A stretch of 64,000 nucleotides of DNA from Candidatus Latescibacterota bacterium (GCA_965243025.1 CBDETY010000003.1:3008001-3072000); one strand, 5' to 3'; positions 7,237 through 64,000 are shown, counted from the first letter of the stretch. Numbers and translations: made by a program. The notes: generated by a model not told the origin, from the sequence alone.

Positions 7237-7240
7237 CCCC

Positions 7241-8367: not shown

Positions 8368-8369
8368 GT

Positions 8370-20893: not shown

Positions 20894-21006
20894 AGCATTT
20901 TTGCGCCAGCATGGAGCAAAGTAGCTGTTGCTTTTCGGACGCGGACCTTACCAAGCTGGCAGGCTTCTTTCGATACCTCCGCTGAGGATCGGAGAACGGG
21001 CTATAT

Positions 21007-21075
21007 CCGTGCCCGAACCGCCACCGGTTGGGCGAAGGCGCCTCAGCGCCGAAGCCGGGCACGGACATGTTAGCA
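21007..21075 (-). repeat. attC-like site, branched family (R' end lost)
   Basis: Near-identical to 62419-62488; TGCTAAC-ATGT-CCGTGCCCG...CGGGCACGG on the minus strand. Confidence 0.75.
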
Positions 21076-21127
21076 GCCGGTGCTTTGTTGGTTCGCCTGA
21101 AAAAACCTCTGCATCACTTCCAAACAT

Positions 21128-21769: not shown

Positions 21770-22243
21770 ATGGCGACTATTCGAAAAGCTCATCCAGAAG
21801 ATGCGGAGGAAATATCCCGGGTTCATGAAAGTTCGATTAGAACTCATGGCCCACAGAGTTACGCTCCCGAAGTTGTCGAAGGATGGGCCGGTGGCATATC
21901 CCCTGCGCGACATCGTGAGGTGATTTCATCAAGGGAAGGTATGTTTGTAGCTGAAATTGACGGGCGGATCATAGGCTTTGGTAGCGTGATCGTTGCGGAC
22001 GGTGAGATTGGTGCTGTTTATGTCGATCCCGAATTTACCCGACAGGGGGTAGGCCAAGCGATTCTCGAACGTCTGGAAGATGTCGCTCGACAGGCAGGTC
22101 TGACTAACATCAAAGTAGGCTCCTCGCTAGTTGCGCTGAGGTTTTACGAACAGAATGGCTACTCTCAAGCGGAGGCGTTCATTCACACTTCGCAGAGAAC
22201 TGGAGTCGACATTCCCTGTGTGTGGATGTCGAAAGAACTGTAG
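21770..22243 (+). CDS. GNAT acetyltransferase (gene cassette)
   Basis: VYVDPEFTRQGVG, ALRFYEQNGY; flanked by attC sites. Confidence 0.9.
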   Translation: MATIRKAHPEDAEEISRVHESSIRTHGPQSYAPEVVEGWAGGISPARHREVISSREGMFVAEIDGRIIGFGSVIVADGEIGAVYVDPEFTRQGVGQAILERLEDVARQAGLTNIKVGSSLVALRFYEQNGYSQAEAFIHTSQRTGVDIPCVWMSKEL

Positions 22244-22256
22244 TGGAAACGAGCGA

Positions 22257-22369
22257 GGGTAACAAACGGCTGCAATGGACGGCGAACCTGTGGCAATACT
22301 TGGGGGGTTTATGGTAATATTCGGAAGGCCCTTGGCAATTCGTGCCGCCATTGAGCCTTGCCGTTAAAC
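22257..22369 (+). repeat. Canonical attC site
   Basis: GGGTAAC-AAAC-GGCT[G]CAATGG[A]CGGC ... GCCGCCATTGAGCC-TTGCC-GTTAAAC, with two extrahelical bases. Confidence 0.9.
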
Positions 22370-22427
22370 TGCAAGTGAAGACAAAGAAAGTGATGGTGTT
22401 CCCGCCCTTCTTCTGGCTGATTTCTAA

Positions 22428-23404: not shown

Positions 23405-23623
23405 TGGAGTTGACCCGATTTCGTGGACACTTCATTTCTTGAAGAGAGAAAGGAGGGTGTCCAACCATGCCGAAATCCCATTCCCCTTATCCGCCCGAAT
23501 TCCGGCAACAGATGGTGGAGCTGGTACGGGCGGGTCGTAGCCCGGAGTCGCTGGCCAAGGAATTCGAGCCGTCCGGGCAGACGATCCGCAACTGGGTGAT
23601 CGTCCGGAGCAGGAGGAATTGCG
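23405..23623 (+). mobile_element. IS3 remnant (IRL + partial orfA with internal deletion)
   Basis: Matches the 5' ~195 bp of the other IS3 copies, then jumps to cgtccggagcaggaggaattgcg. Confidence 0.88.
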
Positions 23624-26196: not shown

Positions 26197-27456
26197 TGAG
26201 GTTACCCCGATTTCACGGACAGTTTTCCGTTTGGATTTATACCCCTTGATAAATGATACCTCTCGTAGTTGATGGGAGATCGTTGTCCCAGGGCCGAGTG
26301 CCGCCGATGGGGGTTGTACCAGCCTTCCAGGTATTCGAAAACCGTACGCTGGGCTTGCGACTGGGTAGCAAACCGATGACGATCCAGCAGCTCCCTTTCC
26401 AAGGTGGCGAAAAAGCTTTCGCACAGAGCATTGTCGAAGCAGTCACCGACCGATCCCATCGACGGACGTACCCCGGCCTGGCGACAGCGCTTCCCGAAGG
26501 CCAGGGCCGTATACTGACTGCCGTGGTCGGAGTGGTGAATCACTTTCTTGGGACGGCGCCGGTGCAGGGCCATGTCAAGGGCGTCCAGCACCAACTGCGT
26601 ACGCATATGGTTCGCCATGGCCCAGCCCACCACTCGGCGGCTCCAGGCGTCCATGACCACGCTCAGATACAAAAACCCCGACCTCGTGGGAATGTAGGTG
26701 AGATCGGCAACCCACAGGCGATTCGGGCCGGAGACCGAAAACACCCGCTTGACCAGGTCGGAGGCGACCCGGCCCTGCCGGCCGCGACGGGTGGTGGAGA
26801 GGCGGCGGCGGGCGCATACCCCGCGCACCCCGAGCTCAAGCATCAATCGGGCGATGCGCTTGCGACCGATGGCTTGGCCCTCCTCGGCCAGTTCGGCCCG
26901 GATCCTCGGCGCTCCATAAGTGCCCCGGGAGTGTTGGTGGATCTGCTCGACACGTGCCTTGAGCACGGCATCGGCCCGGGCGCGACCCGAAGGCGGGCGT
27001 TTCAACCAGGCGTAGTAGCCGCTGGGGGAGACCTTCAGCACGCGGCACATCGTCAGCACCGGAAAGTCGGCCTGGTGCGCTCTCATGAACTCGTAGACGG
27101 GCCGGACTCCGAGTCGGCCTCGCGAGCGAACCAGGCCGTGGCTTTTGCCAGGATCTCCCGTTCGATACGCAGTTGCTTGTTCTCACGGCGAAGGCGCCGC
27201 AATTCCTCCTGCTCCGGACGGGAGGGGCCGTCGCGGCGCACCCCCTCATCGCGTTCGGCCTGGATCACCCAGTTGCGGATCGTCTGCCCGGACGGCTCGA
27301 ATTCCTTGGCCAGCGACTCCGGACTACGACCCGCCCGTACCAGTTCCACCATCTGTTGCCGGAATTCGGGCGGATAAGGGGAATGGGATTTCGGCATGGT
27401 TGGACACCCTCCTTTCTTTCAAGAAATGAAGTGTCCACGAAATCGGGTCAACTCCA
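26197..27456 (-). mobile_element. Complete IS3-family element (orfA 27083-27397, orfB 26202-27086)
   Basis: TG..CA imperfect IRs, 3-bp TSD TAC, DDE motifs WVADLTY/HHSDHGSQY/ESFF. Confidence 0.95.
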
Positions 27457-51200: not shown

Positions 51201-52368
51201 GTGTTGTGTCGCAGAGATTCGCTCACAAAGTCTCTTGATTTTCGCGAGGATGGAATCGGCCGTAGCCGTCCAGACGAAAGGGCGTGCGTTGGCGTTCCAT
51301 TTGGCGGTGTAGCGTTCGATCCGCTCGATGAGCTCTGATACCTTACGGAACGAGTCCCGGCGAAGAGCTTGGCGGGTAATGACGCTGAACCAGATCTCGA
51401 CTTGGTTGAGCCACGAAGCATACGTGGGGGTGTAGTGAACGTGAAATCGAGGACGCCGTGCCAGCCATCGCTTGACCTTGGCATGCTTATGCGTGGCTTA
51501 GTTGTCGACGACCAGATGAATATCGAGGTCAGCCGGGACGTTGGCTTCAATGTGGCGCAGGAACTGGAGGAACTCCTGGTGACGATGACGAGACTTGCAC
51601 TGGGTCATCACGGCGCCGGTGGCGATGTCCAGTGCGGCGAACAGGGTGGTGGTGCCATGCCGCTTGTAGTCGTGCGTTACCCCTTCCACGTATCCCAGTC
51701 CCAGGGGCAGCATGGGCTGACTTCGTTCCAACGCCTGGATCTGGCTCTTCTCGTCCACGCGCAGCACCATGGCGTGCTCGGGGGGATTCAGGTATAAGCC
51801 GACGATATCCCGTACTTTGTCGACAAAGAAAGGATCGGTGGAAAGCTTGAAGTGCTTGTGTCGGTGGGGCTGCAAACCATACGTGCGCCAAATGCGATGA
51901 ACGCCATCCTTGGTCAGGCCGGTTTCCTCGCCCATGGAGCGCAGCGACCACTGGGTTTGGTCTTTGGGCTGGGTCTTCAGGGTCTTGTATACCACCTCGG
52001 CTACCTGCTCGTCCGTGATCGATCGCGGCGCCCCTGAGCGCAGCTCATCATACAAGCCTTGGAGCCCGTTTTCGAGAAAGCGCCGGCGCCACTTGCCGAC
52101 CGTAGCACGCGTCACACCCACCGCGGCCGCGACGGCTTCATTGGGCCAGCCTTCGGCGGCCAGCAGTATAATCTCGGCTCGCCGCACCAACCCGTGGGGA
52201 AGGCTCCGTGATTTGGCCATCGATTCCAATCGTTCCCGGTCCGACGGACTCAGCTCTAACGGCGTTAATGGACGCCCCGTCACCATAGGTCTCTCCTTTC
52301 AGAAAAGGGGATAAGAGAAACCTACGGCACCTTCAATTGTTTGTACAGTTATTTAGACGACAGGGCAC
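51201..52368 (-). mobile_element. IS630-family element; transposase inactivated by an in-frame TAA (51498-51500)
   Basis: CTAG at both ends (TA duplication); IRs GTGTTGTGTCG/GTGCCCTGTCG; VDN*ATHK..ASWLNQVE continues in frame. Confidence 0.92.
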
Positions 52369-52419
52369 TAGAGGGATTGTGCGGAATGACTTGGGATTCA
52401 GGAAGGCTGCGGAGGCGGA

Positions 52420-52500
52420 CGGTGACATCGCAGCCCCGCGGGCGCCTTGGCCTTTGGCAACTAGCGGGACGGGTTCGCACACTGAGTAAAAACGTTATAA
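52420..52500 (+). repeat. attC-like site, branched family
   Basis: gggcgccttggcctttggcaac..gggttcgc..AAACGTTATAA matches the reverse complement of 61535-61624. Confidence 0.7.
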
Positions 52501-52549
52501 GGGAATGCTAGCCAAGAGACTTGGGCTGTTCATATGGAGGTACTGAGAT

Positions 52550-53269
52550 ATGGGTTTGCCGAACATGGTTGTGATTGGATTTGGGCGGATGGGCCGCAAG
52601 TTTGCGGAGATCTTCTCTGAGCGTTTCCAAGTGCATGTGATTTCCTCCCGAAATGTATCAGACACGGTAGCTGAAATTGGCTGCGATCAAGCAAATAGTT
52701 TTTCGCAGGCGGTCTCTGATGCGGAGTACCTATTTCTCGCTGTGCCAATCCATGCCTTGGACGAAGTTATCGAACAGGTCAATTCGTACGTTCGGCCGGA
52801 TGCGGTCGCATTTGATATGTGCTCAGCACGCGTCGTGGCTGGCAAAAAGATGGACAAACTATGTTGCAACTGGTTCGGGATACATGCGGGAGGTGTATTT
52901 GGCGATGCGGATTCCAGGATCATTGAGTTCCTTGCGGAGAAGGGATATCGATATCGGCCGATGAGGGCGGATGAACACGACAGAAGAAATGTCATCAATG
53001 CACTCGCCCATTTCATCGGCATGACCTTGGACGATTTCCTGTCAGAAAAGGAAAAGGAGGCATTTGGACCAGCGGGCCGGAATCTGGTCGACCTAATTGA
53101 CCATTTGCGCGCCAACGCGCCTGTTACGTATTGGGAGAGTCAGGTCTGCAATCCCTACGCCAGTGAACAAAGAGCCAAACTCGTTGGTGCTTTCGAGGAA
53201 TACTCGGTCCGACTTTCACGCGGAGATTTTCCTTTCTTTCCGAGTCTATCCGGGATGTCTTGGGAATAG
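52550..53269 (+). CDS. Prephenate dehydrogenase-like Rossmann protein (cassette)
   Basis: IGFGRMG, FLAVP, FDMCS, DEHD..HF. Confidence 0.8.
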   Translation: MGLPNMVVIGFGRMGRKFAEIFSERFQVHVISSRNVSDTVAEIGCDQANSFSQAVSDAEYLFLAVPIHALDEVIEQVNSYVRPDAVAFDMCSARVVAGKKMDKLCCNWFGIHAGGVFGDADSRIIEFLAEKGYRYRPMRADEHDRRNVINALAHFIGMTLDDFLSEKEKEAFGPAGRNLVDLIDHLRANAPVTYWESQVCNPYASEQRAKLVGAFEEYSVRLSRGDFPFFPSLSGMSWE

Positions 53270-53292
53270 TCCGAAAAAGTGAGGCGGCAATC

Positions 53293-53383
53293 CTATAACA
53301 GGACGAGTCGCGCCGTTGCGTCGATTGGCGCCTCGGCCCTCAGGATACTGCCGTGCAGGTCCACAACCCCTGAAACCTTAAGT
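53293..53383 (+). repeat. attC-like site (degenerate; R' reads CTT)
   Basis: CTATAAC...ggcgcctcggccctcagg...GAAACCTTAAGT. Confidence 0.5.
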
Positions 53384-53443
53384 GAAATTGGGGCATGACG
53401 GAAGTATCCATGACCCAATCCATGACATTTGGGAGGAATCAAG

Positions 53444-53539
53444 TCATAGCGGGCAGCGTTTAGCGTTCGCGCGCCTTTTTGGCAGCTTTGTTTTTGGGCA
53501 ACCCGGAACGCGGGTTCGACAATCCGGGAATCGCTAGAC
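53444..53539 (+). repeat. attC-like site (degenerate)
   Basis: Family core ggcaacccg..cgggttcg; ends TCATAGC / GCTAGAC. Confidence 0.5.
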
Positions 53540-53568
53540 GACACCCAATTTGAAAGGTCATCTGATCG

Positions 53569-54195
53569 ATGCAGTTTTCCGATATCCTGATCGCTTCGTA
53601 TGAAAATCACGCGTTGGAACGTGAATCGAGTACTTCCAATTCATTCAAGGAGCTAGAAAGGCACGAGTTCCAAAAGTATCTGAAAATCGAGAGACGAAGC
53701 ACTATCCTTGAGCTTGGTTGTGGACCTGGTCACGATGCACGTTCCTTTATGGAACAGGGCTTCCAAATTCTTGCTGTCGACATTGCTCCGAGGATGGTCA
53801 AATTGGCGAAACAAAAAGGGGTCAACGCCAGAATTTTGGATTGCTATGATCTCGATCAGATGGTCGAAACATTTGACGCCATTTATTCGATGAATTGCCT
53901 TCTTCACATACCGAATAATGATATACTTCACATACTCGACTTGATCTCGGCTCGCCTCAATGAAGGCGGCTTTTTGTATCTCGGTTTATGGGGAGGCGAA
54001 GACTTTGAGGGAATCTGGGAGGAGGATCGATTTGAGCCGAAACGGTTTTTCTCTTTTCGGAAGACAGAGACTCTTTTGGAGCTCGTACATCAGTCATTTG
54101 AAGTCCAGTATTATCGAAAAATAGAGGCTCGGAAGGGTATGTTCTTCAATTCACTGATTAGCCGCAAGCGTTATCCCGAAGTGGGCGTTCTTTAA
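53569..54195 (+). CDS. Class I SAM-dependent methyltransferase (cassette)
   Basis: ILELGCGPG, AVDIA, FDAI, LNEGG. Confidence 0.9.
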   Translation: MQFSDILIASYENHALERESSTSNSFKELERHEFQKYLKIERRSTILELGCGPGHDARSFMEQGFQILAVDIAPRMVKLAKQKGVNARILDCYDLDQMVETFDAIYSMNCLLHIPNNDILHILDLISARLNEGGFLYLGLWGGEDFEGIWEEDRFEPKRFFSFRKTETLLELVHQSFEVQYYRKIEARKGMFFNSLISRKRYPEVGVL

Positions 54196-54775: not shown

Positions 54776-54928
54776 GGGGGCGTGCCCGATGCAGATTGCT
54801 TGACTGGTCAGCAGGAATCCTGTGATATTGCCAGCCACCCGACATTCCCGATTTTCCAGCCCTTCGCGAAACAGCGCTATCGTTTCATATGCCTTGTTTT
54901 GAACATTTCACATGCTCGAAGGTCCTTC

Positions 54929-55022
54929 ACGTAACGTCTCACCGATTGCCGAACTCGCCGAAGACGATCCCAAAGGCCAAAGGTCGGCGCCGCCAGCCGT
55001 AGCGGAAAACGAGTTGTAATGG
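54929..55022 (-). repeat. attC-like site, branched family
   Basis: taacgtctcaccgatt.ccgaactcgccgaag shared with 63311-63406; ~12 bp after the stop at 55034. Confidence 0.75.
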
Positions 55023-55033
55023 GACGTGCAGAT

Positions 55034-55732
55034 TCATTGTCGTCCCGTGGACGTCCCAATAAGAAAATCCGAGGCGGCAAGCCACTGCTCTGCGACTGTA
55101 CGAAGGTCGCCTCCTGGTATCGCGACCCTCGCTGGAATCTCCTGGAGCACCGCGCGCAGCTCTCCACCCCGCTGACGAAGCAAACTCATATCGGTTTGCC
55201 CCCGTAGCACAGATTTTACTTCCGAGTACGCAAAGTGCATCGCCGTGCCTATGCGGTGTTCTAAGGACCAGTCCATTTCATTCTCTCGACGAAGCCGAGA
55301 AACCAGTAGTCTTTCTGGAGGATACTCCCCAACCGACAGGTATCCTGGTTTGCATTCTGCCAGCGTGCCAAATCTGGCAACGTCCTCACCACGCTCGAAC
55401 GGGCAAAGATCCATGAGGTTCAGATCCACTTTGTGAAACACTGACTCGTTACGAAGAACCGTTCCAAGCATGCATGCCGACGTCGCGGTGGACATGAGCA
55501 TCCCGTGGTAGCGAAAAGGACGATAAGAGTTCAACGCACCCACCACATTCCAGCAGCAGCCAGGAAATCCAGAGACTACGAGAAGAAGGTCGATGTCCGA
55601 CCAACGATCCTCTTCGCCCCTAGCCTCCGAACCGAACGTGTAGCAACGCTCAACGACTGGAAGGGTCCCAAGGAAATCACACAGGTCCTTCGCCAGTGTC
55701 CGCCTTGCAGCCATTCCAGGTTGAGTCAACAT
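55034..55732 (-). CDS. Pol-beta-fold nucleotidyltransferase, ANT(6)/Lnu-like (cassette)
   Basis: FGSEARG..DRWSDIDL..KVDL. Confidence 0.8.
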   Translation of the reverse strand: MLTQPGMAARRTLAKDLCDFLGTLPVVERCYTFGSEARGEEDRWSDIDLLLVVSGFPGCCWNVVGALNSYRPFRYHGMLMSTATSACMLGTVLRNESVFHKVDLNLMDLCPFERGEDVARFGTLAECKPGYLSVGEYPPERLLVSRLRRENEMDWSLEHRIGTAMHFAYSEVKSVLRGQTDMSLLRQRGGELRAVLQEIPARVAIPGGDLRTVAEQWLAASDFLIGTSTGRQ

Positions 55733-55777
55733 CCCGTTCCTTTGGGGGAATCTTGATCTTACACCCTACCTACATTG

Positions 55778-55861
55778 CTCAAACGTTTCGCCGTGCCCGA
55801 ACCGCGAATGCGGTTGCCCGAAGGCGCGCCTGCGCCAAAGCCGGGCACGGACGTGTTAGGC
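55778..55861 (-). repeat. attC-like site, branched family
   Basis: GCCTAAC-ACGT-CCGTGCCCG...CGGGCACGG-CGAAAC-GTTTGAG; 6 bp after the stop. Confidence 0.85.
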
Positions 55862-55867
55862 GAAGAC

Positions 55868-56668
55868 TTACACTTCAGCCAGAATTACCATTCCCACAGG
55901 AAGTCGAGGCACGTCACCCTCACTGTCGACATTATCCCAACCAGCCAATTCTTCAAGTCGGCGAATGACAAATCCCGCATCAGCGATGGCGTTAACGACC
56001 TCCGCGAGGGGATGAAAGAATTCGACAATTTCTCGCTCCCCTTTCCAGCCACCGTGTTTGTCAGCGAGTGGAGTGCCGTCGAAACGGTAATACCCAGGTG
56101 ACGTGTTGAAGTAATCTCGTTCGACCGAAAAGACGCCATCCCTCTCCGACAAGCATTCCAAGACTGGATTGCCGTGGGTTAATACCAATCGTCCCGTTGG
56201 CTTGAGGACCCTGTGCCAATTGCGACAACACAAGAATAGATCCTCGAACCAGCAGATGTACGTTGCAACGACGATATCCAGGCTACCGTCAGGTATCGGC
56301 AACAAAGTCTGAGCATCGGCTTCGACAAATGTGACATTCGATCCGATCTTGGCCGCATTTTCCTTTGCAATGCGGATCGCTACTGGGCTGATGTCGCAGG
56401 CCGTAACGTGGGCACCGAGATTCCCCCAGGAGAAAGCCTGTTTCGCATCTCCCGCGCAACAGGTATCTAGCAGGTGCGCCCCGGAAACGTCACCAGCCAA
56501 TTGGACTACTGCTGCGTCGAGGGTGACTGCCCCCTCAGCATAGTGCTTATGGAAGTTCGGCACCTCTTTGAGGTTGAAATCCATGTAGGCTTCTTGGTAT
56601 TCGTCCCAAGCTTCTCTCAGCATCTTGTTATGGATGGCTTGTTTATCTGGCTGGTTCATATTTGACAT
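55868..56668 (-). CDS. Class I SAM-dependent methyltransferase (cassette)
   Basis: LLDTCCAG, VTACDIS, EADAQ, RVLKPTG. Confidence 0.88.
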   Translation of the reverse strand: MSNMNQPDKQAIHNKMLREAWDEYQEAYMDFNLKEVPNFHKHYAEGAVTLDAAVVQLAGDVSGAHLLDTCCAGDAKQAFSWGNLGAHVTACDISPVAIRIAKENAAKIGSNVTFVEADAQTLLPIPDGSLDIVVATYICWFEDLFLCCRNWHRVLKPTGRLVLTHGNPVLECLSERDGVFSVERDYFNTSPGYYRFDGTPLADKHGGWKGEREIVEFFHPLAEVVNAIADAGFVIRRLEELAGWDNVDSEGDVPRLPVGMVILAEV

Positions 56669-56695
56669 TTCCCCACAACCGGAAATCGAGTTTTC

Positions 56696-56754
56696 GCCTA
56701 ACGGACAAGGGCTTGCGATGGGCGGACCCGCGTGTGCGCGGTGTATAGTTGAGA
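56696..56754 (-). repeat. attC-like site (short, eroded)
   Basis: TCTCAAC ... GTTAGGC on the minus strand. Confidence 0.6.
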
Positions 56755-56794
56755 AGGGTCCTCAAGCCCGGAGTTGGTGGCCGTGCTCCCCTCC

Positions 56795-57271
56795 CTACTC
56801 CCGCTCCACGAAATATTTCTTAAATCCGTGACTCGTCCCATCTTGCATTCCAAGGCGTTTGTAGAATCCCACCTGATCTTCGTTTGGACCGCTGAGTAAC
56901 TGTAACTTGTAGCAGCCCTTCTCTTCGGCAAGGTTAATCGCAAATGTCATCAGTTTTTTCCCAAATCCTTTGCCTCTTTGTTCGCGTGCAACAACGACGT
57001 TCTCGATGATAGCCCAAGGGCGCCCTTCGTAAGTAAAATTCGGAACGATTGCCATTATGAGAGTGGCCACTATTTCCTTATCCGACTCGCCCACAACAAT
57101 GAAAATGTTGCCGTAGTCAGACATCTCATCGAAGATCCGAATTGACTCTTCGAGTCCGAGAGTCTTGGCCGAAAGACTATGGGGGCGGCTCGTGATCTGA
57201 GGAAAGAGATTTAGCAGCGATTCGACGTCTAACCTGGTCGCAACTCGGCAAGAAATGTCTGAATGATTCAT
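56795..57271 (-). CDS. GNAT acetyltransferase (cassette)
   Basis: IENVVV...QRGKGFG, GCYK, FYKRLG. Confidence 0.92.
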   Translation of the reverse strand: MNHSDISCRVATRLDVESLLNLFPQITSRPHSLSAKTLGLEESIRIFDEMSDYGNIFIVVGESDKEIVATLIMAIVPNFTYEGRPWAIIENVVVAREQRGKGFGKKLMTFAINLAEEKGCYKLQLLSGPNEDQVGFYKRLGMQDGTSHGFKKYFVERE

Positions 57272-57300
57272 CCGGTGGCCTTTCTCGACTTCGGCATGGC

Positions 57301-57368
57301 CATTAACGTTTTACCGGTTGCGGAAGCCCAAGGTGCGCCAGCACCGCAGCGCAAACGTGTTGTTAGAC
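57301..57368 (-). repeat. attC-like site
   Basis: GTCTAAC ... AAACGTTAATG; shares gccgcagcgcaaac-type core with 57705-57796. Confidence 0.75.
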
Positions 57369-57376
57369 GCTGCTTC

Positions 57377-57694
57377 TCACAGCTCTACTTCCTCGCAAGC
57401 CCACTCCTGCTCAAATGTCATTAACTCATTCCAACGTTCAAGAATGGGTTCATATTGGCGATACCAGTCAGCGTAATCCTCCGAATTCGTCGTCTCCTCC
57501 CAAGTGTGACGACTCGACCAATACTGCAACGCGAGATAAAATCGAGTATCAGCGATGCGAAGCAGACCGAGCCGCAGACAACCTGGGAGTTTCTTGAAGT
57601 GTGGAACGATCTCCCCACTGACAAGACTTTCAAGCTCCCCTTGCTCCGCACCATCTCGCAATGACCACCGCTTAAACGTTATGAAGTTTGACAT
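57377..57694 (-). CDS. Dimeric alpha-beta barrel / ABM-like small protein (cassette)
   Basis: 105 aa; KLPGC..Y....YWSS pattern. Confidence 0.65.
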   Translation of the reverse strand: MSNFITFKRWSLRDGAEQGELESLVSGEIVPHFKKLPGCLRLGLLRIADTRFYLALQYWSSRHTWEETTNSEDYADWYRQYEPILERWNELMTFEQEWACEEVEL

Positions 57695-57704
57695 ATGAAA
57701 TTTT

Positions 57705-57796
57705 GTTTAACGTTCCGGGCGGCCTGCGAACCCGCGCAGCGGGTTGCCGGAGGCCAAGGCGCGATCAGCGCCGCAGCGCAAACCGCGGCGTTACCC
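57705..57796 (-). repeat. attC-like site, branched family
   Basis: GGGTAAC ... GGAACGTTAAAC; aacccgc/gcgggtt hairpin. Confidence 0.82.
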
Positions 57797-57869
57797 GATG
57801 TATCAAACCACTGGACGCACCTGCGCTACTTCACTCACTCTTGAGGAACGGCACGAATTGCATCATCTA

Positions 57870-59025
57870 GTGCTCTGTTAAAGAGTCGGCATTGAATTTT
57901 GGACCTTCACCAACTTGGCATCGTCCCGGTTTCGATGTCGCCATACGAGGTATTCCTGCATGCGTTGGCCGACGTCTCGATGGTCCCTTGGGTCGCTGTT
58001 CTTGATGACGAAGTAATGGGCCGCCGTCAGATGGCATTCGAGACGATTCATCCAGGAGGCGTTGGTCGCGGTGAAGACCAAAAAGACCTGATTTCGCTGA
58101 CACCATCGCCGGATCTTGTCGGTCGTGTGCGTCGACAGGTTGTCGAGGACGAGGTAGATGCGTTTGGCTTTGCGGTAGCGGCGCCGGATGGCCTTCAGGA
58201 AGGTGAGCACCACCGAGGCGTGCTTCTTCGGCTTGTGATGCATCCACAGGTGATCCTCGTGGACGTTGTAGGCGCCGAAGAAGTAGCTGACGCCGGCGTG
58301 CCGGGAGTAGGTGGCCCGGTGCCGCACCGGGTGTTTCTGCGGCGCCCACGAAGAGCCGGCATGGGGCTTGATCTGCACCGGCCCCATCTCGTCGAAGCAG
58401 ACTACGACCGCGTCCTTCGGCGGGCGCCGGTAGAGGCGGTCGATGCGTTTTTTTTCGAGGAGAAATCCGGATCCTTCGACTCCTTCCAGGTGCGGGTCCG
58501 CTGGTAGGTGATCTTATGCCGGTCCAGGACCTTGGCGATGGTCACGTGCGAGACCTTGGGGATCATCTGGCGCCCCACCAGACAGTCGGTCAGCTTGCGC
58601 AGCGACCAGTGATTGAAGGGTTCGCCGAAAGCTCGAGGGGGCATCTTGGCGATCTCCACCACCACGGACTCGTCTTCGGGCGTCAGCGTCGGGGGGCGCC
58701 CCGGATGGGCTCGGGTGCGCAGCGAGGCCAGCCCTTCCTCGTTGTATTGCCGCAGCAGTTGGCGCACGTATTCTTCGTGCAGATGCAGGGTCGACGACAG
58801 TTCCTGGACCCGCATACCCTGGGCACTGAGGGAGATCAACTGCCCTCGGCGCATCTGCACGGCATGGCGCGGCCGCTTCAGCCATCGGCTCAGTTCCCTG
58901 GATTCGGCCGCATTCGGTGTTCGAGCATGGAGACACATGGCAGGACCTCCCCGTAAGAATCGACGTATGTCCCCATGATACCAAGGCTTACGAGAAAGTA
59001 CAAGCCCCAATCCTTAACGGAGCAC
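57870..59025 (-). mobile_element. IS630-family element (orfs 58402-59010 and 57878-58387, joined by a probable frameshift at A8, 58448-55)
   Basis: IRs GTGCTCTGTTAAAGA/GTGCTCCGTTAAGGA, CTAG at both ends; LDNLSTH, ASWMNRLE. Confidence 0.93.
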
Positions 59026-59115
59026 TAGCTGGCGCGACAATGGCGATAAATCGACACCAGACTTCGGATCAATCACTGCAATCGTGTAATCAACTGTGGT
59101 ATCAGGGTAAACCTG

Positions 59116-60375
59116 TGGAGTTGACCCGATTTCGTGGACACTTCATTTCTTGAAAGAAAGGAGGGTGTCCAACCATGCCGAAATCCCATTCCCCTTATCC
59201 GCCCGAATTCCGGCAACAGATGGTGGAACTGGTACGGGCGGGTCGTAGTCCGGAGTCGCTGGCCAAGGAATTCGAGCCGTCCGGGCAGACGATCCGCAAC
59301 TGGGTGATCCAGGCCGAACGCGATGAGGGGGTGCGCCGCGACGGCCCCTCCCGTCCGGAGCAGGAGGAATTGCGGCGCCTTCGCCGTGAGAACAAGCAAC
59401 TGCGTATCGAACGGGAGATCCTGGCAAAAGCCACGGCCTGGTTCGCTCGCGAGGCCGACTCGGAGTCCGGCCCGTCTACGAGTTCATGAGAGCGCACCAG
59501 GCCGACTTTCCGGTGCTGACGATGTGCCGCGTGCTGAAGGTCTCCCCCAGCGGCTACTACGCCTGGTTGAAACGCCCGCCTTCGGGTCGCGCCCGGGCCG
59601 ATGCCGTGCTCAAGGCACGTGTCGAGCAGATCCACCAACACTCCCGGGGCACTTATGGAGCGCCGAGGATCCGGGCCGAACTGGCCGAGGAGGGCCAAGC
59701 CATCGGTCGCAAGCGCATCGCCCGATTGATGCTTGAGCTCGGGGTGCGCGGGGTATGCGCCCGCCGCCGCCTCTCCACCACCCGTCGCGGCCGGCAGGGC
59801 CGGGTCGCCTCCGACCTGGTCAAGCGGGTGTTTTCGGTCTCCGGCCCGAATCGCCTGTGGGTTGCCGATCTCACCTACATTCCCACGAGGTCGGGGTTTT
59901 TGTATCTGAGCGTGGTCATGGACGCCTGGAGCCGCCGAGTGGTGGGCTGGGCCATGGCGAACCATATGCGTACGCAGTTGGTGCTGGACGCCCTTGACAT
60001 GGCCCTGCACCGGCGCCGTCCCAAGAAAGTGATTCACCACTCCGACCACGGCAGTCAGTATACGGCCCTGGCCTTCGGGAAGCGCTGTCGCCAGGCCGGG
60101 GTACGTCCGTCGATGGGATCGGTCGGTGACTGCTTCGACAATGCTCTGTGCGAAAGCTTTTTCGCCACCTTGGAAAGGGAGCTGCTGGATCGTCATCGGT
60201 TTGCTACCCAGTCGCAAGCCCAGCGTACGGTTTTCGAATACCTGGAAGGCTGGTACAACCCCCATCGGCGGCACTCGGCCCTGGGACAACGATCTCCCAT
60301 CAACTACGAGAGGTATCATTTATCAAGGGGTATAAATCCAAACGGAAAACTGTCCGTGAAATCGGGGTAACCTCA
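59116..60375 (+). mobile_element. Complete IS3-family element (orfA 59175-59489, orfB 59486-60370)
   Basis: 4-bp TSD CCTG; ORF translations identical to 26197-27456. Confidence 0.95.
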
Positions 60376-60631
60376 CCTGAACAATCTTGTAGTCGATGGA
60401 AGGGTTCGGCTCCACAACGCGGACTGAATACTTAGCACCCAACTCAGGAACATGCACGTGGCGCAATTGTTTCAAAGCGTCTTCGACCCTTCGAACCGAA
60501 GACGAGTCACCTTGAACGACCAGCGTTAGTGGCTCTTCGGCGGGTTCGTCGCAGCTAGCCTCCAGGAGTGCCCCTACTCCTGAACAGATAATCCAGAGTC
60601 GTCGTCGCATCATGTTCTGATCTCGCATTTC

Positions 60632-60720
60632 GGGTAACGTCCGACAATTCCCGACAGCCCGAAGGGCTGTGCCGAAGGACGAGCGGCGAATGGCGCGCCG
60701 TGGGAATTGCTTTGATATAT
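60632..60720 (-). repeat. attC-like site with non-canonical R'' (ATATATC)
   Basis: caattccc/gggaattg stem, CAGCCC-GAA-GGGCTG hairpin, R' GTTACCC. Confidence 0.75.
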
Positions 60721-60791
60721 GACGTGTACTCTCAGAGGCAATGGGGTCCTGTTGGTGCACAATTTGTAAGATATCTTCGTTGAAACGCGAG

Positions 60792-61505
60792 CTACTCCGG
60801 CAGTCTTCCAGCTAACCATTCAATGGCGTTGAGGGTCCATGTCTCGTTTGACGCGCCCGCGAACAGATCTGTGCGGGAGTCGTCGAGGCTGGAAATGTGG
60901 CCCCCCGAGGTCATGACAACGGCCTTGCCCGCGATCGCCCCGGGCGGTTCTATTGCTGCGGCAAAATCGCCGACATTAGGGTCTTCACTACGGCCCAGGA
61001 CTGTGACGGAAGAACCCCGTCCCAAGGTCATTGAGCAGGATGTCCGGATCTGTAAGCCGTGGGGACAATTTTGCGAAATCGGATGGGAAGGGACCAGCAC
61101 TATTCGTGGCGTTCTAACCCACTCCTCATGGAATGTTACGGGCAAGTCCAACGTGCGAGCGACTTGATTCTGCGGTTCAACGAACCCCTTGTGATTGGCC
61201 ATGAGGAATAGACCACCACCGCGCGTAAAGAAATCGGTGATGGCGGCCAATTCGCCGTCCGAGAACGGAATACTTTTTCTTCTCCCCGAGATCACCAGGA
61301 CTCCGGCCTCGCGTAGGGAAGCCGCTTCGAGATCCGTAGGATCCATAGTGTAGCCACGGGCAGTGAGAGCGGAGGCAAGTCCAACCAACCGCTGTCCTCG
61401 CCAAGCGTCCCCTCGGGGCGGTTCACTATAGTTTTCAGGTTCCGTACCTTGATGTCGAATAACCTGATGACTTTTCGAATCGAAAGCCACTTTTACCATA
61501 ACCAT
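60792..61505 (-). CDS. Class I glutamine-amidotransferase-like fold (DUF4350/GldG-like) protein (cassette)
   Basis: FD..H, FSDGELAAITDFFTRGGGLFL, HPI, NAIEWL. Confidence 0.7.
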   Translation of the reverse strand: MVMVKVAFDSKSHQVIRHQGTEPENYSEPPRGDAWRGQRLVGLASALTARGYTMDPTDLEAASLREAGVLVISGRRKSIPFSDGELAAITDFFTRGGGLFLMANHKGFVEPQNQVARTLDLPVTFHEEWVRTPRIVLVPSHPISQNCPHGLQIRTSCSMTLGRGSSVTVLGRSEDPNVGDFAAAIEPPGAIAGKAVVMTSGGHISSLDDSRTDLFAGASNETWTLNAIEWLAGRLPE

Positions 61506-61534
61506 GGTACTATTCCAGTCACCTTATCCATGTC

Positions 61535-61624
61535 ATATATCGCTTTCCGGTTGCCGAACCCGCGAAGCGGGTTGCCGAAGGCCAAGGCGCCCGAGGGCGG
61601 GGCAGCGGCCACAGGTTGTTACCG
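61535..61624 (-). repeat. attC-like site with non-canonical R' (GATATAT)
   Basis: CGGTAAC...; aacccgc-GAA-gcgggtt and gcc-GAA-ggc hairpins. Confidence 0.8.
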
Positions 61625-61640
61625 GATGTGAGATCTCAAC

Positions 61641-62384
61641 CTACCCGAACCCGTTGGTCCGTATCCATTCGATTGACGACGAGATGCCCTCGTCAAGAGT
61701 TTCCAAGCACCACACAGCTTCCGGCGCATACTCCAGAAGAGCACTACACACCTCACCAATAGGGATAGTCCCTTGATCAAGAGCGAGGTGCTCGTCGGGC
61801 TCTCCGTGATTGTTGTGCATGTGAACCCACCCGATTCTGGGTCCAAGTCGTTCGACCCACGCTATCGGAGTCTCACGAGAGTTGCAATGGCAGTCCCCAA
61901 TATCGAGGCATACGTCCACTCGAGGATCATTGATTGCGTCGATCACTTCAGCTAGCAGGACGGCATCCCATCCGAGCATGTTCTCAACATGGTAGCGAAC
62001 AGAGGGTTCCTTGCACTCAAGGAAGTCATGCCAGAACGCCACACATCGAGACAACCAATTCTGCGGGGCGCTGGTGCCTGGGACGTATCCGTGGTGTAGG
62101 ATGATGTCGAAGCAATCTAGTTCACGGGCGAAGCGGCACGCCAGTTCGAATCGATGCCGGGTCACCTCCCGGATCATGGGATCATAGCTTCCAGCGCACA
62201 GATCCCCGAAAGGTCCGTGGAGTGAACGTAGCTGAAGATCATCCAGAGGTCTTTGTAATGCTGCCACCCTCTCTGGCTCGAGGAAAGACTGGATCTCGAT
62301 CCCATATCCATGTTGACGACAGACAGCGGCGTACTGGAGATCATCGACCGCAACCATAATGCGATGGGGTTTGTAACTCGTCAT
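61641..62384 (-). CDS. Sugar-phosphate isomerase/epimerase (AP endonuclease 2 fold) (cassette)
   Basis: SLHGPF, VENM, CLDIGD, HMHNN, DEHL, CLET; start at MTSYK after the attC. Confidence 0.88.
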   Translation of the reverse strand: MTSYKPHRIMVAVDDLQYAAVCRQHGYGIEIQSFLEPERVAALQRPLDDLQLRSLHGPFGDLCAGSYDPMIREVTRHRFELACRFARELDCFDIILHHGYVPGTSAPQNWLSRCVAFWHDFLECKEPSVRYHVENMLGWDAVLLAEVIDAINDPRVDVCLDIGDCHCNSRETPIAWVERLGPRIGWVHMHNNHGEPDEHLALDQGTIPIGEVCSALLEYAPEAVWCLETLDEGISSSIEWIRTNGFG

Positions 62385-62404
62385 CACTTCGCAAATCTCC
62401 TTTC

Positions 62405-62488
62405 CGGTAACGTTCTCGCCGTGCCAGAACCGCGAAGGGGTTGGGCGAAGGCACCTCAGCGCCGAAGCCGGGCACGGACGTGTTATAT
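62405..62488 (-). repeat. attC-like site, branched family
   Basis: ATATAAC-ACGT-CCGTGCC...GGCACGG-CGAGAAC-GTTACCG. Confidence 0.85.
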
Positions 62489-62514
62489 GCAGTGCCGCAA
62501 GCGCTGACAACACT

Positions 62515-63255
62515 TCACGGACCCTGTGCCTGGTAGACCCCAATTATTCGGTCAATACTCTTGGTATGAAGGCGCTCATGCCATACCAGGCGACGCAAAA
62601 CCTTCCCCACAGACCAGCCGCCGTGAGCATCTAAGAGATGAATTCGCGAAAGGTCTTGTTCTGCCTTCAACTTCTGTAATGCCTCGATTGTCACGTTTCG
62701 ATGTTTTAATAAGTTATGCTGCCACGGACCCTTACTGTCAGCGGGCGAAACGGTAGGACGGATACCAATGTTTGGCAAGTAATAGTGAGTTTCTACGTTT
62801 GCGATGTGCACAAGAATCTGTCGGATTGTTCGCCAGTTCGCCCAAGTTGAAAAACGGCGATAGGGCGGATTCCAATCTAAGGCGTTGTCCGACAACTCAG
62901 CGACCTGCCTCAGAAGGTCTGTGCGTGTGGCATGAAGTAAATCGATTGTCTCATCAATCAATGAAGGTGTTACCGGCTGGTAATCCCAGTCGAACAGTAT
63001 CTCGTTTCCGCTGACCTGTTCGGCAACCTCCACTTTGGGTAGCTCTAACCCCACTCGGCACGGCACGCCACACCTTTCGCGAAACCGAATGTACTCCAGC
63101 AGTCTGTCGGGGACCTTTGCAAGGACTTCGTTTTCGGTCTCTCTCCATGTAGCAAAGCCGAGATAAGATGGAATCCAGGCATGGTATCCCGCTTCCCCAT
63201 CTTCGTCGAAAGCTCTGTGGAGGTAAACTTTTGAACTCGCTCTCGGCTCAAGCAC
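62515..63255 (-). CDS. HicB-like N-terminal domain + DinB-family protein (cassette)
   Basis: AW.P...G..T..ET; TIRQILVHIANVE.HY; WSVGKVLRRLVWHERLH. Confidence 0.8.
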   Translation of the reverse strand: MLEPRASSKVYLHRAFDEDGEAGYHAWIPSYLGFATWRETENEVLAKVPDRLLEYIRFRERCGVPCRVGLELPKVEVAEQVSGNEILFDWDYQPVTPSLIDETIDLLHATRTDLLRQVAELSDNALDWNPPYRRFSTWANWRTIRQILVHIANVETHYYLPNIGIRPTVSPADSKGPWQHNLLKHRNVTIEALQKLKAEQDLSRIHLLDAHGGWSVGKVLRRLVWHERLHTKSIDRIIGVYQAQGP

Positions 63256-63310
63256 TCTGATCCTGGACCTTTCTGTGCCTCATTGCATGTCCTCTCTCAG
63301 TCCGCATTGC

Positions 63311-63406
63311 ATATAACGTCTCACCGATTACCGAACTCGCCGAAGGCGAGTTGCCGACAGGCCAAGGTTGGAGAAGCCAGCCGCAGCGGTAAACGAGTGG
63401 TTAGTG
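63311..63406 (-). repeat. attC-like site, branched family
   Basis: CACTAAC...GAGACGTTATAT; CTCGCC-GAA-GGCGAG hairpin. Confidence 0.85.
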
Positions 63407-63469
63407 GATGTGCGATTCTCTCCAAGAACAGCCGGTATGAGGAGAAAAACTCTCAGTCTCTCAGGACAC

Positions 63470-63910
63470 TCAGACAGACGAACGAACAGGTCTTGATGCC
63501 CAGCCTAGGGTTCCAACGCCACCGATGGTTGCCGCGGTTCCAACCACCATCCCCACGATGGTCCCTCCGCCGCATTCCTCGACGCCCAACTCCATTAGTC
63601 TCCAATACTGGTAGAGAGTCCCGACGAAGACCGGAAGCATCCCGATTGCGATTGCTGTCAACCGCTGCCCCACACTGAACTCCTTCAGAAAGCGCCTACC
63701 CAAATTGTACCATACAAAAAGCGTCCCGGCACCGAAGATCGCGAAGACAGCTAGCATTACCAGTCCGAATGGAACTCCCTCGACCGGATTGTTGAGAAGG
63801 GCGTAAAAGACGCCTATGAACAGCGCCATCATGCTGACCGCAGTGGCCAGGAGCGCGACCCCAGCCCCCCCGGGACTACCAAGCAGATCAAGAAAGCGTC
63901 GAATACTCAT
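63470..63910 (-). CDS. Hypothetical membrane protein, ~4 TM (cassette)
   Basis: Four hydrophobic segments; GAGGTG RBS; lies between attC sites. Confidence 0.75.
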   Translation of the reverse strand: MSIRRFLDLLGSPGGAGVALLATAVSMMALFIGVFYALLNNPVEGVPFGLVMLAVFAIFGAGTLFVWYNLGRRFLKEFSVGQRLTAIAIGMLPVFVGTLYQYWRLMELGVEECGGGTIVGMVVGTAATIGGVGTLGWASRPVRSSV

Positions 63911-63957
63911 TCCGCATCCACCTCAAGGCTCAAGGTTCCCTAATTCTATCGCATTTC

Positions 63958-64000
63958 CACTAACGTTTTGACAGGACTCCGAACCGGCGTCAGCCGGTTG
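63958..64000 (-). repeat. attC-like site (partial, runs off the window)
   Basis: cactaacgttttg...ccgaaccggc..gccggttg. Confidence 0.7.

Follow-up and report, generated by a model that had tools for sequence, protein, structure and literature searches.

The window analysed here is a 64,000-nucleotide stretch of the 6.8 Mb genome of a Candidatus Latescibacterota bacterium. Positions 54926–64000 contained nine co-oriented cassette genes on the minus strand, with ten folded repeats of 78–106 nt between them. An earlier note on this DNA had read the region as an integron-type cassette array, in which co-oriented single genes are parted by attC-like sites. This reading held: all nine ORFs were recovered on the minus strand, and all ten repeat elements were present between them. 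Two insertion sequences within one cassette, between 57803 and 60629, had been overlooked. A covariance model (R1) built from 20 sites matched eight of the ten elements at 57–80 bits (54926, 55775, 57298, 57702, 60629, 61532, 62402 and 63308); all eight are among the training sites, so these matches follow by construction. Searches of Rfam, which holds no attC family, gave no matches. The features are as follows (window coordinates).

54926..55029, + (folding strand): attC-like site, last of the array; R1 68.5 bits (training row), fold
55034..55732, −: cassette ORF, 232 aa, nucleotidyltransferase domain (PF01909, 26.9 bits)
55775..55868, +: attC-like site, subtype A; R1 57.6 bits, fold −27.4 kcal/mol
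55868..56668, −: cassette ORF, 266 aa, SAM methyltransferase (PF08241, 66 bits)
56696..56790, +: divergent attC-like site that falls outside the sequence family, without an R1 match even at E ≤ 5; read from the sequence, it keeps the family architecture (AAC/GTT ends, 7-bp L stem, longer 5′ arm spacer)
56795..57271, −: cassette ORF, 158 aa, GNAT acetyltransferase (PF00583, 61.9 bits); DNA 94% identical in G031, whose genome belongs to a different family
57298..57375, +: attC-like site, short form; R1 60.3 bits
57377..57694, −: cassette ORF, 105 aa, ABM monooxygenase-like (PF03992, 25 bits)
57702..57803, +: attC-like site of the cassette that holds both insertion sequences; R1 75.6 bits
57867..59029, −: IS630-like insertion sequence, its transposase split into ORFs 57878–58387 and 58402–59010 (PF13358, PF13565); multi-copy in G000, G004 and G013
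59116..60376, −: second multi-copy element, 374-aa ORF (59195–60319) without a Pfam family; seven more copies in G000 at 100% identity
60323..60613, −: cassette ORF, 96 aa, no assigned function; the cassette is uninterrupted in the G004 array, where its three flanks are contiguous (G004:C1:2052290–2052782, 86–93%)
60629..60727, +: attC-like site; R1 66.3 bits
60792..61505, −: cassette ORF, 237 aa, sub-threshold DUF4350 likeness only (23.5 bits, cut-off 30.4)
61532..61631, +: attC-like site, TATC replacing TAAC in the sequence; R1 69.6 bits
61641..62384, −: cassette ORF, 247 aa, xylose-isomerase-like TIM barrel (PF01261, 85.8 bits); DNA 84% identical in the G012 array
62402..62495, +: attC-like site, subtype A; R1 72.3 bits
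62515..63255, −: cassette ORF, 246 aa, DinB_2 (PF12867, 34.9 bits)
63308..63413, +: attC-like site; R1 80.2 bits
63470..63910, −: cassette ORF, 146 aa, no family matched
63958..64000, +: divergent attC-like site of which the window retains only the 5′ part (from sequence); the full form is also a divergent member without an R1 match

As the earlier note had anticipated, the array continues past 64000, with two further cassettes followed by an attI-like site 1.4 kb right of the window. Where an attI and an integrase had been expected, the attI-like site was found together with a decayed recombinase gene. The array is "integrase-less" in having no working integrase, a label that needs qualifying because a decayed gene fragment persists. 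The 11 sites span C3:3062926 to 3072736, with no IntI present and a largest gap of 2.8 kb, which is due to the two insertion sequences. The array therefore falls under the definition of a CALIN (at least two attC sites less than 4 kb apart, no nearby IntI). Its G+C content was 55.9%, compared with 65.4% for the genome. A second array, 20 kb long and 1.05 Mb distant, has the same kind of end, next to an internally deleted recombinase copy. The array is a genuine mobile gene-cassette array and a degenerate member of an integron-like class, and the window probably holds the distal nine-cassette portion of an 11-cassette array on a decayed chromosomal integron-like platform.

The attI-like site is an inverted repeat beside a TAAC junction. 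It was conserved in eight platforms of six genomes, and the cassette side of the junction was variable in sequence; it corresponds to the attI between integrase gene and first cassette, its function being putative. Strain differences also break at this junction, as seen for G002, which was joined to the third cassette in contigs of runs X9 and X10 and to the fourth in contigs of run X11. The breakpoints lay at the junction motif or at most 4 nt from it, in short contigs that break at repeats and carry 7–19 unmatched letters at the joints. Three cassettes of the array have homologues in genomes of other genera, in other contexts; the remaining cassettes had none in 24 relatives, including those of the same genus.

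Recombinase remnants and intact relatives

A decayed tyrosine recombinase gene fragment adjoins the attI-like site. Here, a 391-bp stretch right of the window (C3:3073384–3073765) aligned at 74% identity with the terminal part of the second array and the 5′ end of its recombinase remnant. With the intact protein of relative G002 as the query, tblastn hits in the genome were limited to the two remnants and one Xer-like gene; the separate Xer-like gene of the genome lies at 6.50 Mb. The remnant of the second array scored 103.7 bits on TIGR02249 (cut-off 265), covered only model positions 238–315 and had its second catalytic R replaced by K. No TIGR02249 match above the cut-off was found genome-wide.

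The intact G002 recombinase (293 aa) also stayed below this cut-off (223.6 bits), with TIGR02249 as its best-scoring NCBIfam family. Its best solved relative was VchIntIA (2A3V, 158 bits), matched in two segments; 18 of its residues stand opposite 60 of the VchIntIA chain (residues 179–238). An alignment (A3) with six canonical IntI of relatives had gaps at the IntI-specific insertion, approximately 42 residues. The SAM-like N-terminal domain (PF13495) and the catalytic domain are shared with VchIntIA/IntI4 (2A3V) and canonical IntI (TIGR02249). An integrase in the sense of IntegronFinder combines PF00589 with the IntI-specific additional domain; the approximately 42 residues are absent from the remnants and from the intact relatives. 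Right of the window, where the earlier note had suggested looking for a tyrosine recombinase with the IntI insertion, lies a remnant of a recombinase type that lacks the insertion. A partner recombinase without the IntI-specific domain is the key oddity of the locus and was missed by the earlier note. The recombinases described here resemble Xer/XerA recombinases acting at dif in length class and in lacking the additional domain, and score 175–235 bits on Xer and XerA models, but they head cassette arrays and are not solitary. The additional domain has been reported as necessary for IntI activity (title of Messier and Roy 2001, cited in PMC9668308), and recombinases without it near attC sites were examined by Cury et al. 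2016 and judged not to be IntI (PMC4889954).

In a careful tree, the array-linked clade fell within a 36-row insertion-less group (support 70/95), separate from IntI. Canonical IntI nested inside the insertion-less family, beside insertion-less Bacteroidota and Ignavibacteriota rows (84/80). Secondary loss would make the array-linked recombinase a descendant of canonical IntI minus the additional domain, and the system a degenerate offshoot rather than a lineage that is separate or older. An AU test did not reject a tree holding the array-linked clade together with canonical IntI (lnL 8.2 lower, p 0.354), and both the best-scoring family and the best solved relative are of the IntI kind. We nevertheless consider such a loss unlikely, given the tree placement, the closer identity to the wide insertion-less family (43–60%) than to the six canonical IntI (37–42%; 34–37% by tblastn), and the arrays with the same site ends borne by insertion-less members of several phyla.

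Fold of the sites and a possible mechanism

On the folding strand, a site combines an R box, in which TAAC pairs with GTTA, with a spacer of 4 nt on one side only, an L stem of 9–11 bp and a branched tip. Pairing exceeded chance, with 87.3% of 1376 cells paired compared with 32–52% when partners were slid. Compensatory changes were found in 15 of 20 pairs overall. In the L stem, nine of ten pairs had changed on both sides (82.9% of cells paired), as had four of five in the inner hairpin; the L-pair count comes from an alignment fitted to the model, and a MAFFT-based count gave the same picture.

As in attC sites, the R″ and R′ boxes pair through their conserved AAC and GTT (the three pairs were standard in 65, 59 and 67 of the 71 sites), and the L″ and L′ boxes pair as structure rather than as sequence. 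The unpaired spacers of similar length on both attC arms were lacking: of the 71 sites, 67 had a 5′-arm spacer of 4 nt, and 69 had a 3′-arm spacer of 0 nt. Across phyla, the R box and spacer kept their sequence, which is not so in canonical attC. The R box, spacer, L box and branched tip are shared with VCR and other large attC sites, as presumably is recognition by structure. VCR is described as having three extrahelical bases on the R″–L″ arm and five spacer bases per arm (PMC2727003), compared with 4 and 0 nt here, where the R′–L′ arm was the longer in 67 of 71 sites.

The earlier note had reported that the L-box extrahelical bases were missing. The usual two or three, as seen in folds of canonical G021 sites, appear to be largely absent. 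"No extrahelical base" is nevertheless too strong for this lineage, because the 3′ arm of the L stem measured 12–13 nt against 10–11 nt in the covariance-model alignment (1–2 extra bases in most sites) and the folds had one bulged base near the base of the L stem, next to the spacer; folds of Desulfitobacterium and Paenibacillus sites had no such bulge. Minimum-energy DNA folds placed a multi-branch tip on the outer stem in most sites, in agreement with the proposed branched fold instead of one long hairpin. The branched tip was rejected as a novel trait, as complex, branched variable terminal structures are already described for large attC sites such as VCR (Bouvier 2009, PMC2727003). The sites do form a class of their own, with no R1 matches beside canonical IntI, but the tip is not what sets them apart.

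The explanation that we regard, as a whole, as the probable one is insertion and excision by an insertion-less recombinase at folded sites. In each cassette, a single gene without an apparent promoter would precede a folded recombination site whose L stem is kept by compensatory changes, and the array would start at a conserved double-strand attI-like site with the remnant of its cognate recombinase beside it. In relatives with an intact gene, the enzyme may insert and excise cassettes at GTTA junctions via the folded sites, in an IntI-like manner, and may recognise the correct strand by the lopsided spacer instead of extrahelical L-box bases. Both copies of the gene in this genome appear to be dead; the array would therefore be frozen and in the course of colonisation by insertion sequences.

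The same elements could instead be used by Xer-like action on double-strand core sites at the conserved junctions, with the hairpins serving another purpose, for example transcription termination or cruciform-assisted synapsis. Recombination of folded single strands has been ascribed to the innovation of the I2 helix (PMC7790495), so an enzyme without it may work differently. The conserved sequence of R box and spacer, the plain inverted repeat of the attI-like site and the 212–235 bits of the protein on the XerA-type model NF040815 are also consistent with Xer-like action. However, the compensatory changes in the L-stem and inner-hairpin pairs point to selection for intrastrand pairing, and the conserved asymmetry of the arms counts against an Xer-like reading because it matters only when the site is folded. 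We judge this alternative quite unlikely.

Distribution of the site family

In the whole genome, all 27 R1 matches at E ≤ 0.1 were on the + strand: nine in this array, 13 in the second array, three at 5.716 Mb and two as single sites. Half of the 52 nhmmer hits had E < 0.01, and these 26 were all on the + strand in the same places as the R1 matches. Across the loci of this genome and its relatives, 51 of 71 R1 matches were non-training rows and so support the family independently of the model's construction. In this genome, the covariance-model scan that the earlier note had proposed returned matches that were clustered, one-stranded and tied to arrays.

Among the relatives, the site family occurred beside nine of ten insertion-less recombinase loci and none of six canonical IntI loci. 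With filters off, R1 found no site in the 80 kb of DNA surrounding four canonical IntI genes from relatives, a canonical attC array included. Each of 10 of the 11 relatives with an insertion-less gene had 10–81 R1 matches, compared with none in all five relatives with canonical IntI alone, counts that are not independent because the relatives are kin. Eighty loci of the recombinase family from other phyla, among them Bacillota and archaea, gave 113 R1 hits, 112 downstream of the gene (305 kb searched) and one upstream (539 kb searched). Of the 44 wide-family loci whose downstream DNA measured 1.5 kb or more, 29 had one or more hits and 15 had none. Among four R1-negative loci put through a repeat search, one carried a clear array with the same end motifs, one a weaker example, and two no array. 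The repeat family accompanies the insertion-less recombinase, not canonical IntI, and the sites and decayed recombinase described here belong to a widespread integron-like family without the presumed defining IntI domain.

The array could also be an ordinary CALIN, built by a canonical integrase that was then lost, with the sites as a lineage-specific attC and the adjoining remnant incidental. The attC-like architecture agrees with this, 7 of 41 related genomes have canonical IntI above the TIGR02249 cut-off, and lineage-specific attC families and an excess of CALIN over complete integrons are described (PMC8352920, PMC4889954). We find it highly unlikely, since both arrays end at insertion-less-type remnants in the classical divergent position, the relatives with canonical IntI alone lack R1 matches, the G021 canonical IntI array has other sites (two 3′-arm bulges, no R1 hit), and the R1 sites of other phyla nearly all follow directly after an insertion-less recombinase. 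That the elements are REP- or MITE-like dispersed repeats, or terminators lying between genes by chance, is hardly credible and already contradicted: although they are G+C-rich intergenic palindromes, the genome-wide scatter named beforehand as counter-evidence was not seen, the few matches being on one strand and counted as array-confined, the same site family adjoins one recombinase family across phyla, and cassette-sized presence/absence differences end at sites.

Relation to known integrons and implications

Sedentary chromosomal integrons and CALIN (Cury et al. 2016, PMC4889954) share with this system co-oriented single-gene cassettes, folded sites with AAC/GTT ends, a homogeneous site family per lineage, cassette content that varies among relatives, an attI beside a divergently read recombinase gene, and integrase gene decay. 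They differ in the IntI-specific domain, and the sites described here in the one-sided spacer and near-continuous L stem. For archaeal integrons, integrase and cassettes are described as sharing one reading direction, with attI immediately downstream of intI (PMC9668308). Arrays of the wide family likewise lie downstream of the recombinase gene and are co-oriented with it, but the archaeal enzymes reportedly possess the additional domain, and the clade of this genome has the classical divergent layout. We found no description of this integron-like class in the literature searched.

Integron integrases are defined and sought by the additional domain, and arrays without such a neighbouring gene are filed as orphan clusters. 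As the cognate recombinase described here lacks this domain, the standard definition would label every such array a CALIN. More tentatively, we propose that a second broad integron lineage without the I2/additional domain, its strand marked by the lopsided spacer, may extend through Bacillota, Nitrospirota, Gemmatimonadota, Ignavibacteriota and several archaeal phyla. If so, many arrays filed as CALIN would be complete platforms, including those in Gram-positive bacteria, a group described as nearly devoid of integrons (bioRxiv 10.1101/2022.02.28.482270). If the recombinase family is the working integrase of its arrays, the current definition overlooks a whole branch, and cassette capture would be taxonomically wider. 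The family would also offer a second, sequence-conserved site design for comparison with canonical attC, and testable natural intermediates for the origin of folded single-strand recombination from Xer-like enzymes. If the nesting of IntI holds, cassette arrays and folded-site recombination would be older than the domain taken as the founding innovation of integrons.

Cassettes and sites of the window array

The long ORFs in window 54926-64000 all lay on the minus strand. The ten elements reported to separate them in the earlier note were borne out, at the positions it gave, by the sequence and the ORF map. Overall, its observation of a cassette array was confirmed and its interpretation was supported in part. 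The G+C content of the array was 55.9%, against 65.4% for the genome.

Cassette ORFs and inserted elements of the window array
ORF 1 of 9, minus strand, nucleotidyltransferase-domain protein
ORF 2 of 9, minus strand, SAM methyltransferase
ORF 3 of 9, minus strand, GNAT acetyltransferase
ORF 4 of 9, minus strand, ABM-like protein
ORF 5 of 9, minus strand, 96 aa, without family
ORF 6 of 9, minus strand, 237 aa, likeness to DUF4350 below threshold only
ORF 7 of 9, minus strand, xylose-isomerase-like TIM barrel
ORF 8 of 9, minus strand, DinB_2 protein
ORF 9 of 9, minus strand, 146 aa, without family
57867-59029, IS630-like element, with more copies in the present genome and in the related genomes G004 and G013
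59116-60376, second multi-copy element (1.26 kb), 374-aa ORF without a Pfam family match

A multi-gene cassette between the sites at 57702 and 60629 was ruled out, since the interval contains the two inserted elements. Seven extra copies of the element at 59116-60376, all 100% identical, occurred in the genome, one of them at window 26197-27456 and the other six elsewhere on the chromosome; the window also held a 93% partial copy at 4166-5099 and a 97% fragment at 23405-23601. Presumably the element represents an insertion-sequence family that is undescribed or poorly modelled. The three pieces flanking both insertions were contiguous in G004 (86-93% identity), so the underlying unit is an ordinary single-gene cassette with the 96-aa ORF. 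An IS630-like fragment was also present at window 51501-52286.

A nhmmer profile from nine elements, run against the 6.8 Mb genome, gave 52 matches at E<10 and 26 at E<0.01, and all 26 were on the plus strand. A covariance model, R1, was built with a hand-drawn structure from 20 sites of the present genome (alignment A2); these were taken from the better nhmmer matches, and weaker ones, including that at 56696, were excluded. At E<=0.1, R1 found 27 matches in the genome, on the plus strand in every case; the training rows match by construction, the remaining matches do not. Nine matches fell in the window array, 13 in the second array (C3:4101433-4119354, contig coordinates) and three at 5.716 Mb, and two were single sites. 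REP- or MITE-like dispersal over the genome, the alternative against which the earlier note had set its reading, was looked for and does not hold: the 27 matches lay on one strand and mostly in arrays.

Two of the ten elements, at 56696 and 63958, were outside the sequence family but retained the layout. The former had no R1 match even at E<=5 with filters off; the latter was divergent and truncated by the window end. An Rfam gathering scan of the window gave 0 matches, which is uninformative because Rfam has no attC family. A detector demanding exact TAAC/GTTA motifs and a perfect run of 8 bp missed all ten sites of the window and was dropped; its totals (114 matches, against 16 in reversed sequence) were set aside because it was too strict.

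Sites of the family, or resembling it, were also seen away from the main array.

Sites outside the two main arrays
window 20988-21082, plus strand, lone site 34 kb left of the array, R1 49.7 bits (training row)
C3:3086698-3086800 (L005:14698-14800), lone site distant from both platforms
C3:5715863-5716796 (locus L006), three-site mini-array distant from both platforms
window 52413-52503, minus strand, weak site of the same family, R1 E 0.037
window 53286-53386, minus strand, weak site of the same family, R1 E 0.0041
window 53444-53542, minus strand, weak site of the same family, R1 E 0.46
window 22250-22375, the "canonical attC" of the earlier note, 3' of a plus-strand GNAT gene (about 21772-22245)

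The three weak sites flanked two plus-strand genes (52550-53269 and 53569-54195), whose products were a NAD-binding oxidoreductase-like protein and a methyltransferase. The opposite orientation of the sites around 52413-54195 indicates a short array converging tail to tail on the main array. From its sequence, the element at 22250-22375 reads as an attC-like site of a different type, with extra bases on the gene-side arm. No recombinase remnant was found by tblastn near the L006 mini-array or the C3:3086698 site.

Array head, recombinase and possible cassette movement

Right of 64000, the 63958 site was completed and followed by a GNAT cassette, then by a strong site at C3:3072638 and then by a GDSL-lipase cassette. 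A 391-bp stretch (C3:3073384-3073765) then showed 74% identity to the right end of the second array. Within it were an attI-like region and the start (~130 bp) of a tyrosine recombinase gene that was interrupted by stops. The array had been expected to run past 64000 towards attI and an integrase; further cassettes and the attI-like region were indeed found there, but the gene only as a decayed fragment. The window locus is a dead, IS-ridden copy. In the second array, the recombinase gene was reduced to an internally deleted ORF of 193 aa, in which K replaced the second catalytic R, and matched the integron integrase model TIGR02249 at positions 238-315 only (103.7 bits, cut-off 265). A tblastn search with an intact relative revealed no further copy in the genome, the sole extra match being a Xer-like gene at 6.50 Mb. 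Since marker genes put genome completeness at 96%, a copy may lie in unassembled DNA. The region from the first cassette to the gene was conserved in eight platforms from six genomes. Its attI-like part had an inverted repeat adjoining the TAAC junction and variable sequence beyond the junction.

Canonical IntI scored over the TIGR02249 cut-off in 7 of 41 related genomes. At least 11 of the 41 carried a gene matching TIGR02249 at about 1-180 and 235-315, with some 14 codons between. The intact representative, from the related genome G002, has 293 aa with SAM-like and catalytic domains. Its best NCBIfam family was TIGR02249 (223.6 bits, under the cut-off), and a XerA-type model scored 212 bits. 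The best solved relative was VchIntIA; the alignment fell into two parts, between which 18 residues of the G002 protein stood in place of VchIntIA residues 179-238. The same gaps, also seen in Xer, appeared in an alignment with six canonical IntI of relatives. We take the absent stretch of VchIntIA (2A3V) to comprise the I2 helix and residues binding the extrahelical bases.

Cassette content differed between relatives. Six of the nine window cassettes had no DNA match (E<=1e-10) in 24 relatives, including two of the same genus; the other three had homologues elsewhere.

Window cassettes with homologues
96-aa ORF cassette, homologue in the G004 array
TIM-barrel cassette, homologue in the G012 array (84%)
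GNAT gene, homologue in G031, a member of another family (94%)

Two of the homology blocks stopped <=2 nt from the TAAC of the adjacent site. In the G002 array, which has the intact gene, contigs of two runs from two studies fused the attI junction to the third cassette, bypassing 1468 nt and leaving 19 letters unmatched where the two parts met. In a third run, attI was joined to the fourth cassette (1861 nt skipped, 7 unmatched letters). The junction motifs of this array lie at 11594, 13044 and 13452, the last being a GAT variant. Runs with shares of 0.06-0.14 (five) and 0.00 (four) were left out, depth figures were not used, and uncovered parts were not interpreted. Since the run evidence consists of short contigs, not reads, it points to strain differences rather than ongoing events.

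Structure of the sites

For the structure, 71 sites from the present genome and nine relatives' loci were fitted to R1, 51 of them non-training sites. In the proposed structure 87.3% of 1376 cells were paired, against 32-52% with partners slid by 1-3 columns. Both-sided changes occurred in 15 of 20 pairs, including 9 of 10 L-stem pairs and 4 of 5 pairs of one inner hairpin. With a MAFFT alignment, which is not fitted to the model, 82.9% were paired, against 30-45% when slid. RNAalifold on that alignment gave merely 4 pairs, because MAFFT had misaligned the inner hairpins, and was replaced by the hand-drawn structure checked with pair counts.

The R box was conserved as sequence, with TAACG paired with TGTTA. 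The spacer on the folding strand was one-sided: of the 71 sites, 67 had a 4-nt spacer in the 5' arm and 69 had 0 nt in the 3' arm. The two sides of the L stem comprised 10-11 nt (5') and 12-13 nt (3'), and as a whole the 5' arm exceeded the 3' arm in length in 67 of 71 sites. Folds showed a single bulged base beside the spacer, followed by a continuous 9-bp stem. When sites adjoining canonical IntI in the related genome G021 were read in the equivalent orientation to their genes, their folds had a nearly symmetric spacer, and the 3' arm carried two or three single bulges, as in the classical attC picture. The earlier note's statement that L-box extrahelical bases are missing was broadly right, yet the folds show one bulge and the 3' L arm has 12-13 nt. 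The branched tip it described is real in folds but not new, having been described for large attC sites (PMC2727003).

At several junctions TATC (GAT on the gene strand) replaced the TAAC (GTT) of the family: L005:1384-1400, L001 about 1010-1030, window 61537-61540, L004:18496 and L015:13452. Among these are the attI junctions of both platforms of the present genome and of the related genome G001, each adjoining a dead recombinase gene. The variant might be carried along with the first bases of a cassette or mark inactive junctions.

Sites and recombinase in relatives and other phyla

The site family adjoined the insertion-less recombinase, which lacks the additional IntI-specific domain, in 9 of 10 relatives' loci, against 0 of 6 canonical IntI loci. 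In five of the relatives' loci and both platforms of the present genome, the array lay upstream of the gene, divergent from it, and ended there. No R1 match was found in 80 kb around four canonical IntI genes. Among 11 relatives carrying the insertion-less gene, 10 had 10-81 R1 matches genome-wide, G013 (84% complete) being the exception; five relatives with canonical IntI alone had none. These genomes are kin, and the association counts are not independent. One relative, G023, had canonical IntI on another contig and a 30 kb array of the present site family (G023:C2:5228-35564), with 46 R1 matches genome-wide. Beside this array, a recombinase fragment (G023:C2:37267-37707) matched TIGR02249 positions 1-148 only, on the strand opposite to the usual layout.

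A pattern scan of one genome per species gave 578 candidate stretches, of which 567 were confirmed as recombinase relatives. The best 80 of the 567 (43-60% identity) were analysed as wide-family loci. These came from Bacillota (Paenibacillus, Cohnella, Desulfitobacterium, Halanaerobiales and others), Nitrospirota, Gemmatimonadota, Bacteroidota, Ignavibacteriota, Krumholzibacteria and several archaeal phyla. R1, trained solely on sites of the present genome, gave 113 matches in the 80 loci at E<=1: 112 downstream of the gene (305 kb searched) and one upstream (539 kb searched). The strand was opposite to the recombinase gene in 106 of the 113. At least one match occurred in 29 of 44 loci with >=1.5 kb downstream, and two or more in 23. 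Repeat finding in three of these loci revealed 6-9 units, spaced 0.4-3.6 kb apart, whose end motifs were the same. Among four loci without R1 matches, two had arrays with the same ends (one clear, one weaker) and two had none.

The genes in these arrays were cassette-like (APH, GNAT, methyltransferase, nitrilase-type, acyltransferase and unknowns). IS91-type elements were rejected as an explanation of the wide family, because ten downstream genes belonged to cassette-like families or to none and a transposase was absent. One Desulfitobacterium and one Paenibacillus site folded with a bulge on the 5' arm only and an unbulged 3' arm. The Paenibacillus site also had a branched tip, and its first hairpin resembled that of the present sites. 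Gene and cassettes were co-directed in the other phyla and divergent in the present clade; in both layouts the gene was at the array head. Locus L030 (Dehalococcoidia) had one minus-strand and then six plus-strand sites at 5115-10364, the sole wide-family locus with a strand change, which suggests an inversion inside the array.

Cury 2016 found 50 recombinases without the IntI domain in the vicinity of attC sites. Four of them fell between IntI and Xer, with <3 sites each, and recombinases without the domain were concluded not to be IntI. Its Supplementary Figures S1 and S5 show domain-less recombinases near attC and may include members of the present family. The IntegronFinder 2.0 paper lists one complete integron and a few CALIN for Firmicutes. 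According to Ghaly 2022, the additional domain is present in archaeal IntI and CALIN make up most archaeal integrons. A full-text literature search of partial coverage gave no account linking cassette arrays to an integrase that lacks the additional domain.

An IQ-TREE analysis of 81 rows (LG+G4) was run with one Xer outgroup on a long branch; the bootstrap was unsettled. The trees omit 12 of the 80 wide-family loci, in which the match did not cover residues 30-283 or a stop was present. The six canonical IntI formed one clade (100/100) nested in the insertion-less family, beside Bacteroidota and Ignavibacteriota rows (84/80). The array-linked clade of the present lineage (100/100) was placed elsewhere in the tree with weak support, and its joining with IntI was not rejected by the AU test (p 0.354). 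A quick tree with this clade far from IntI was discarded, as its log-likelihood was 43.6 units below that of a constrained tree.

Together these loci define a coherent class, represented in many phyla, in which an IntI-like recombinase devoid of the additional domain is combined with an attI-like site and with attC-like sites whose spacer is one-sided and whose extrahelical bases are few or absent. By analogy, we infer that the insertion-less enzymes would recombine folded sites. The additional domain may either have been gained once, within a family that already bore arrays, or have been lost in the present lineage.
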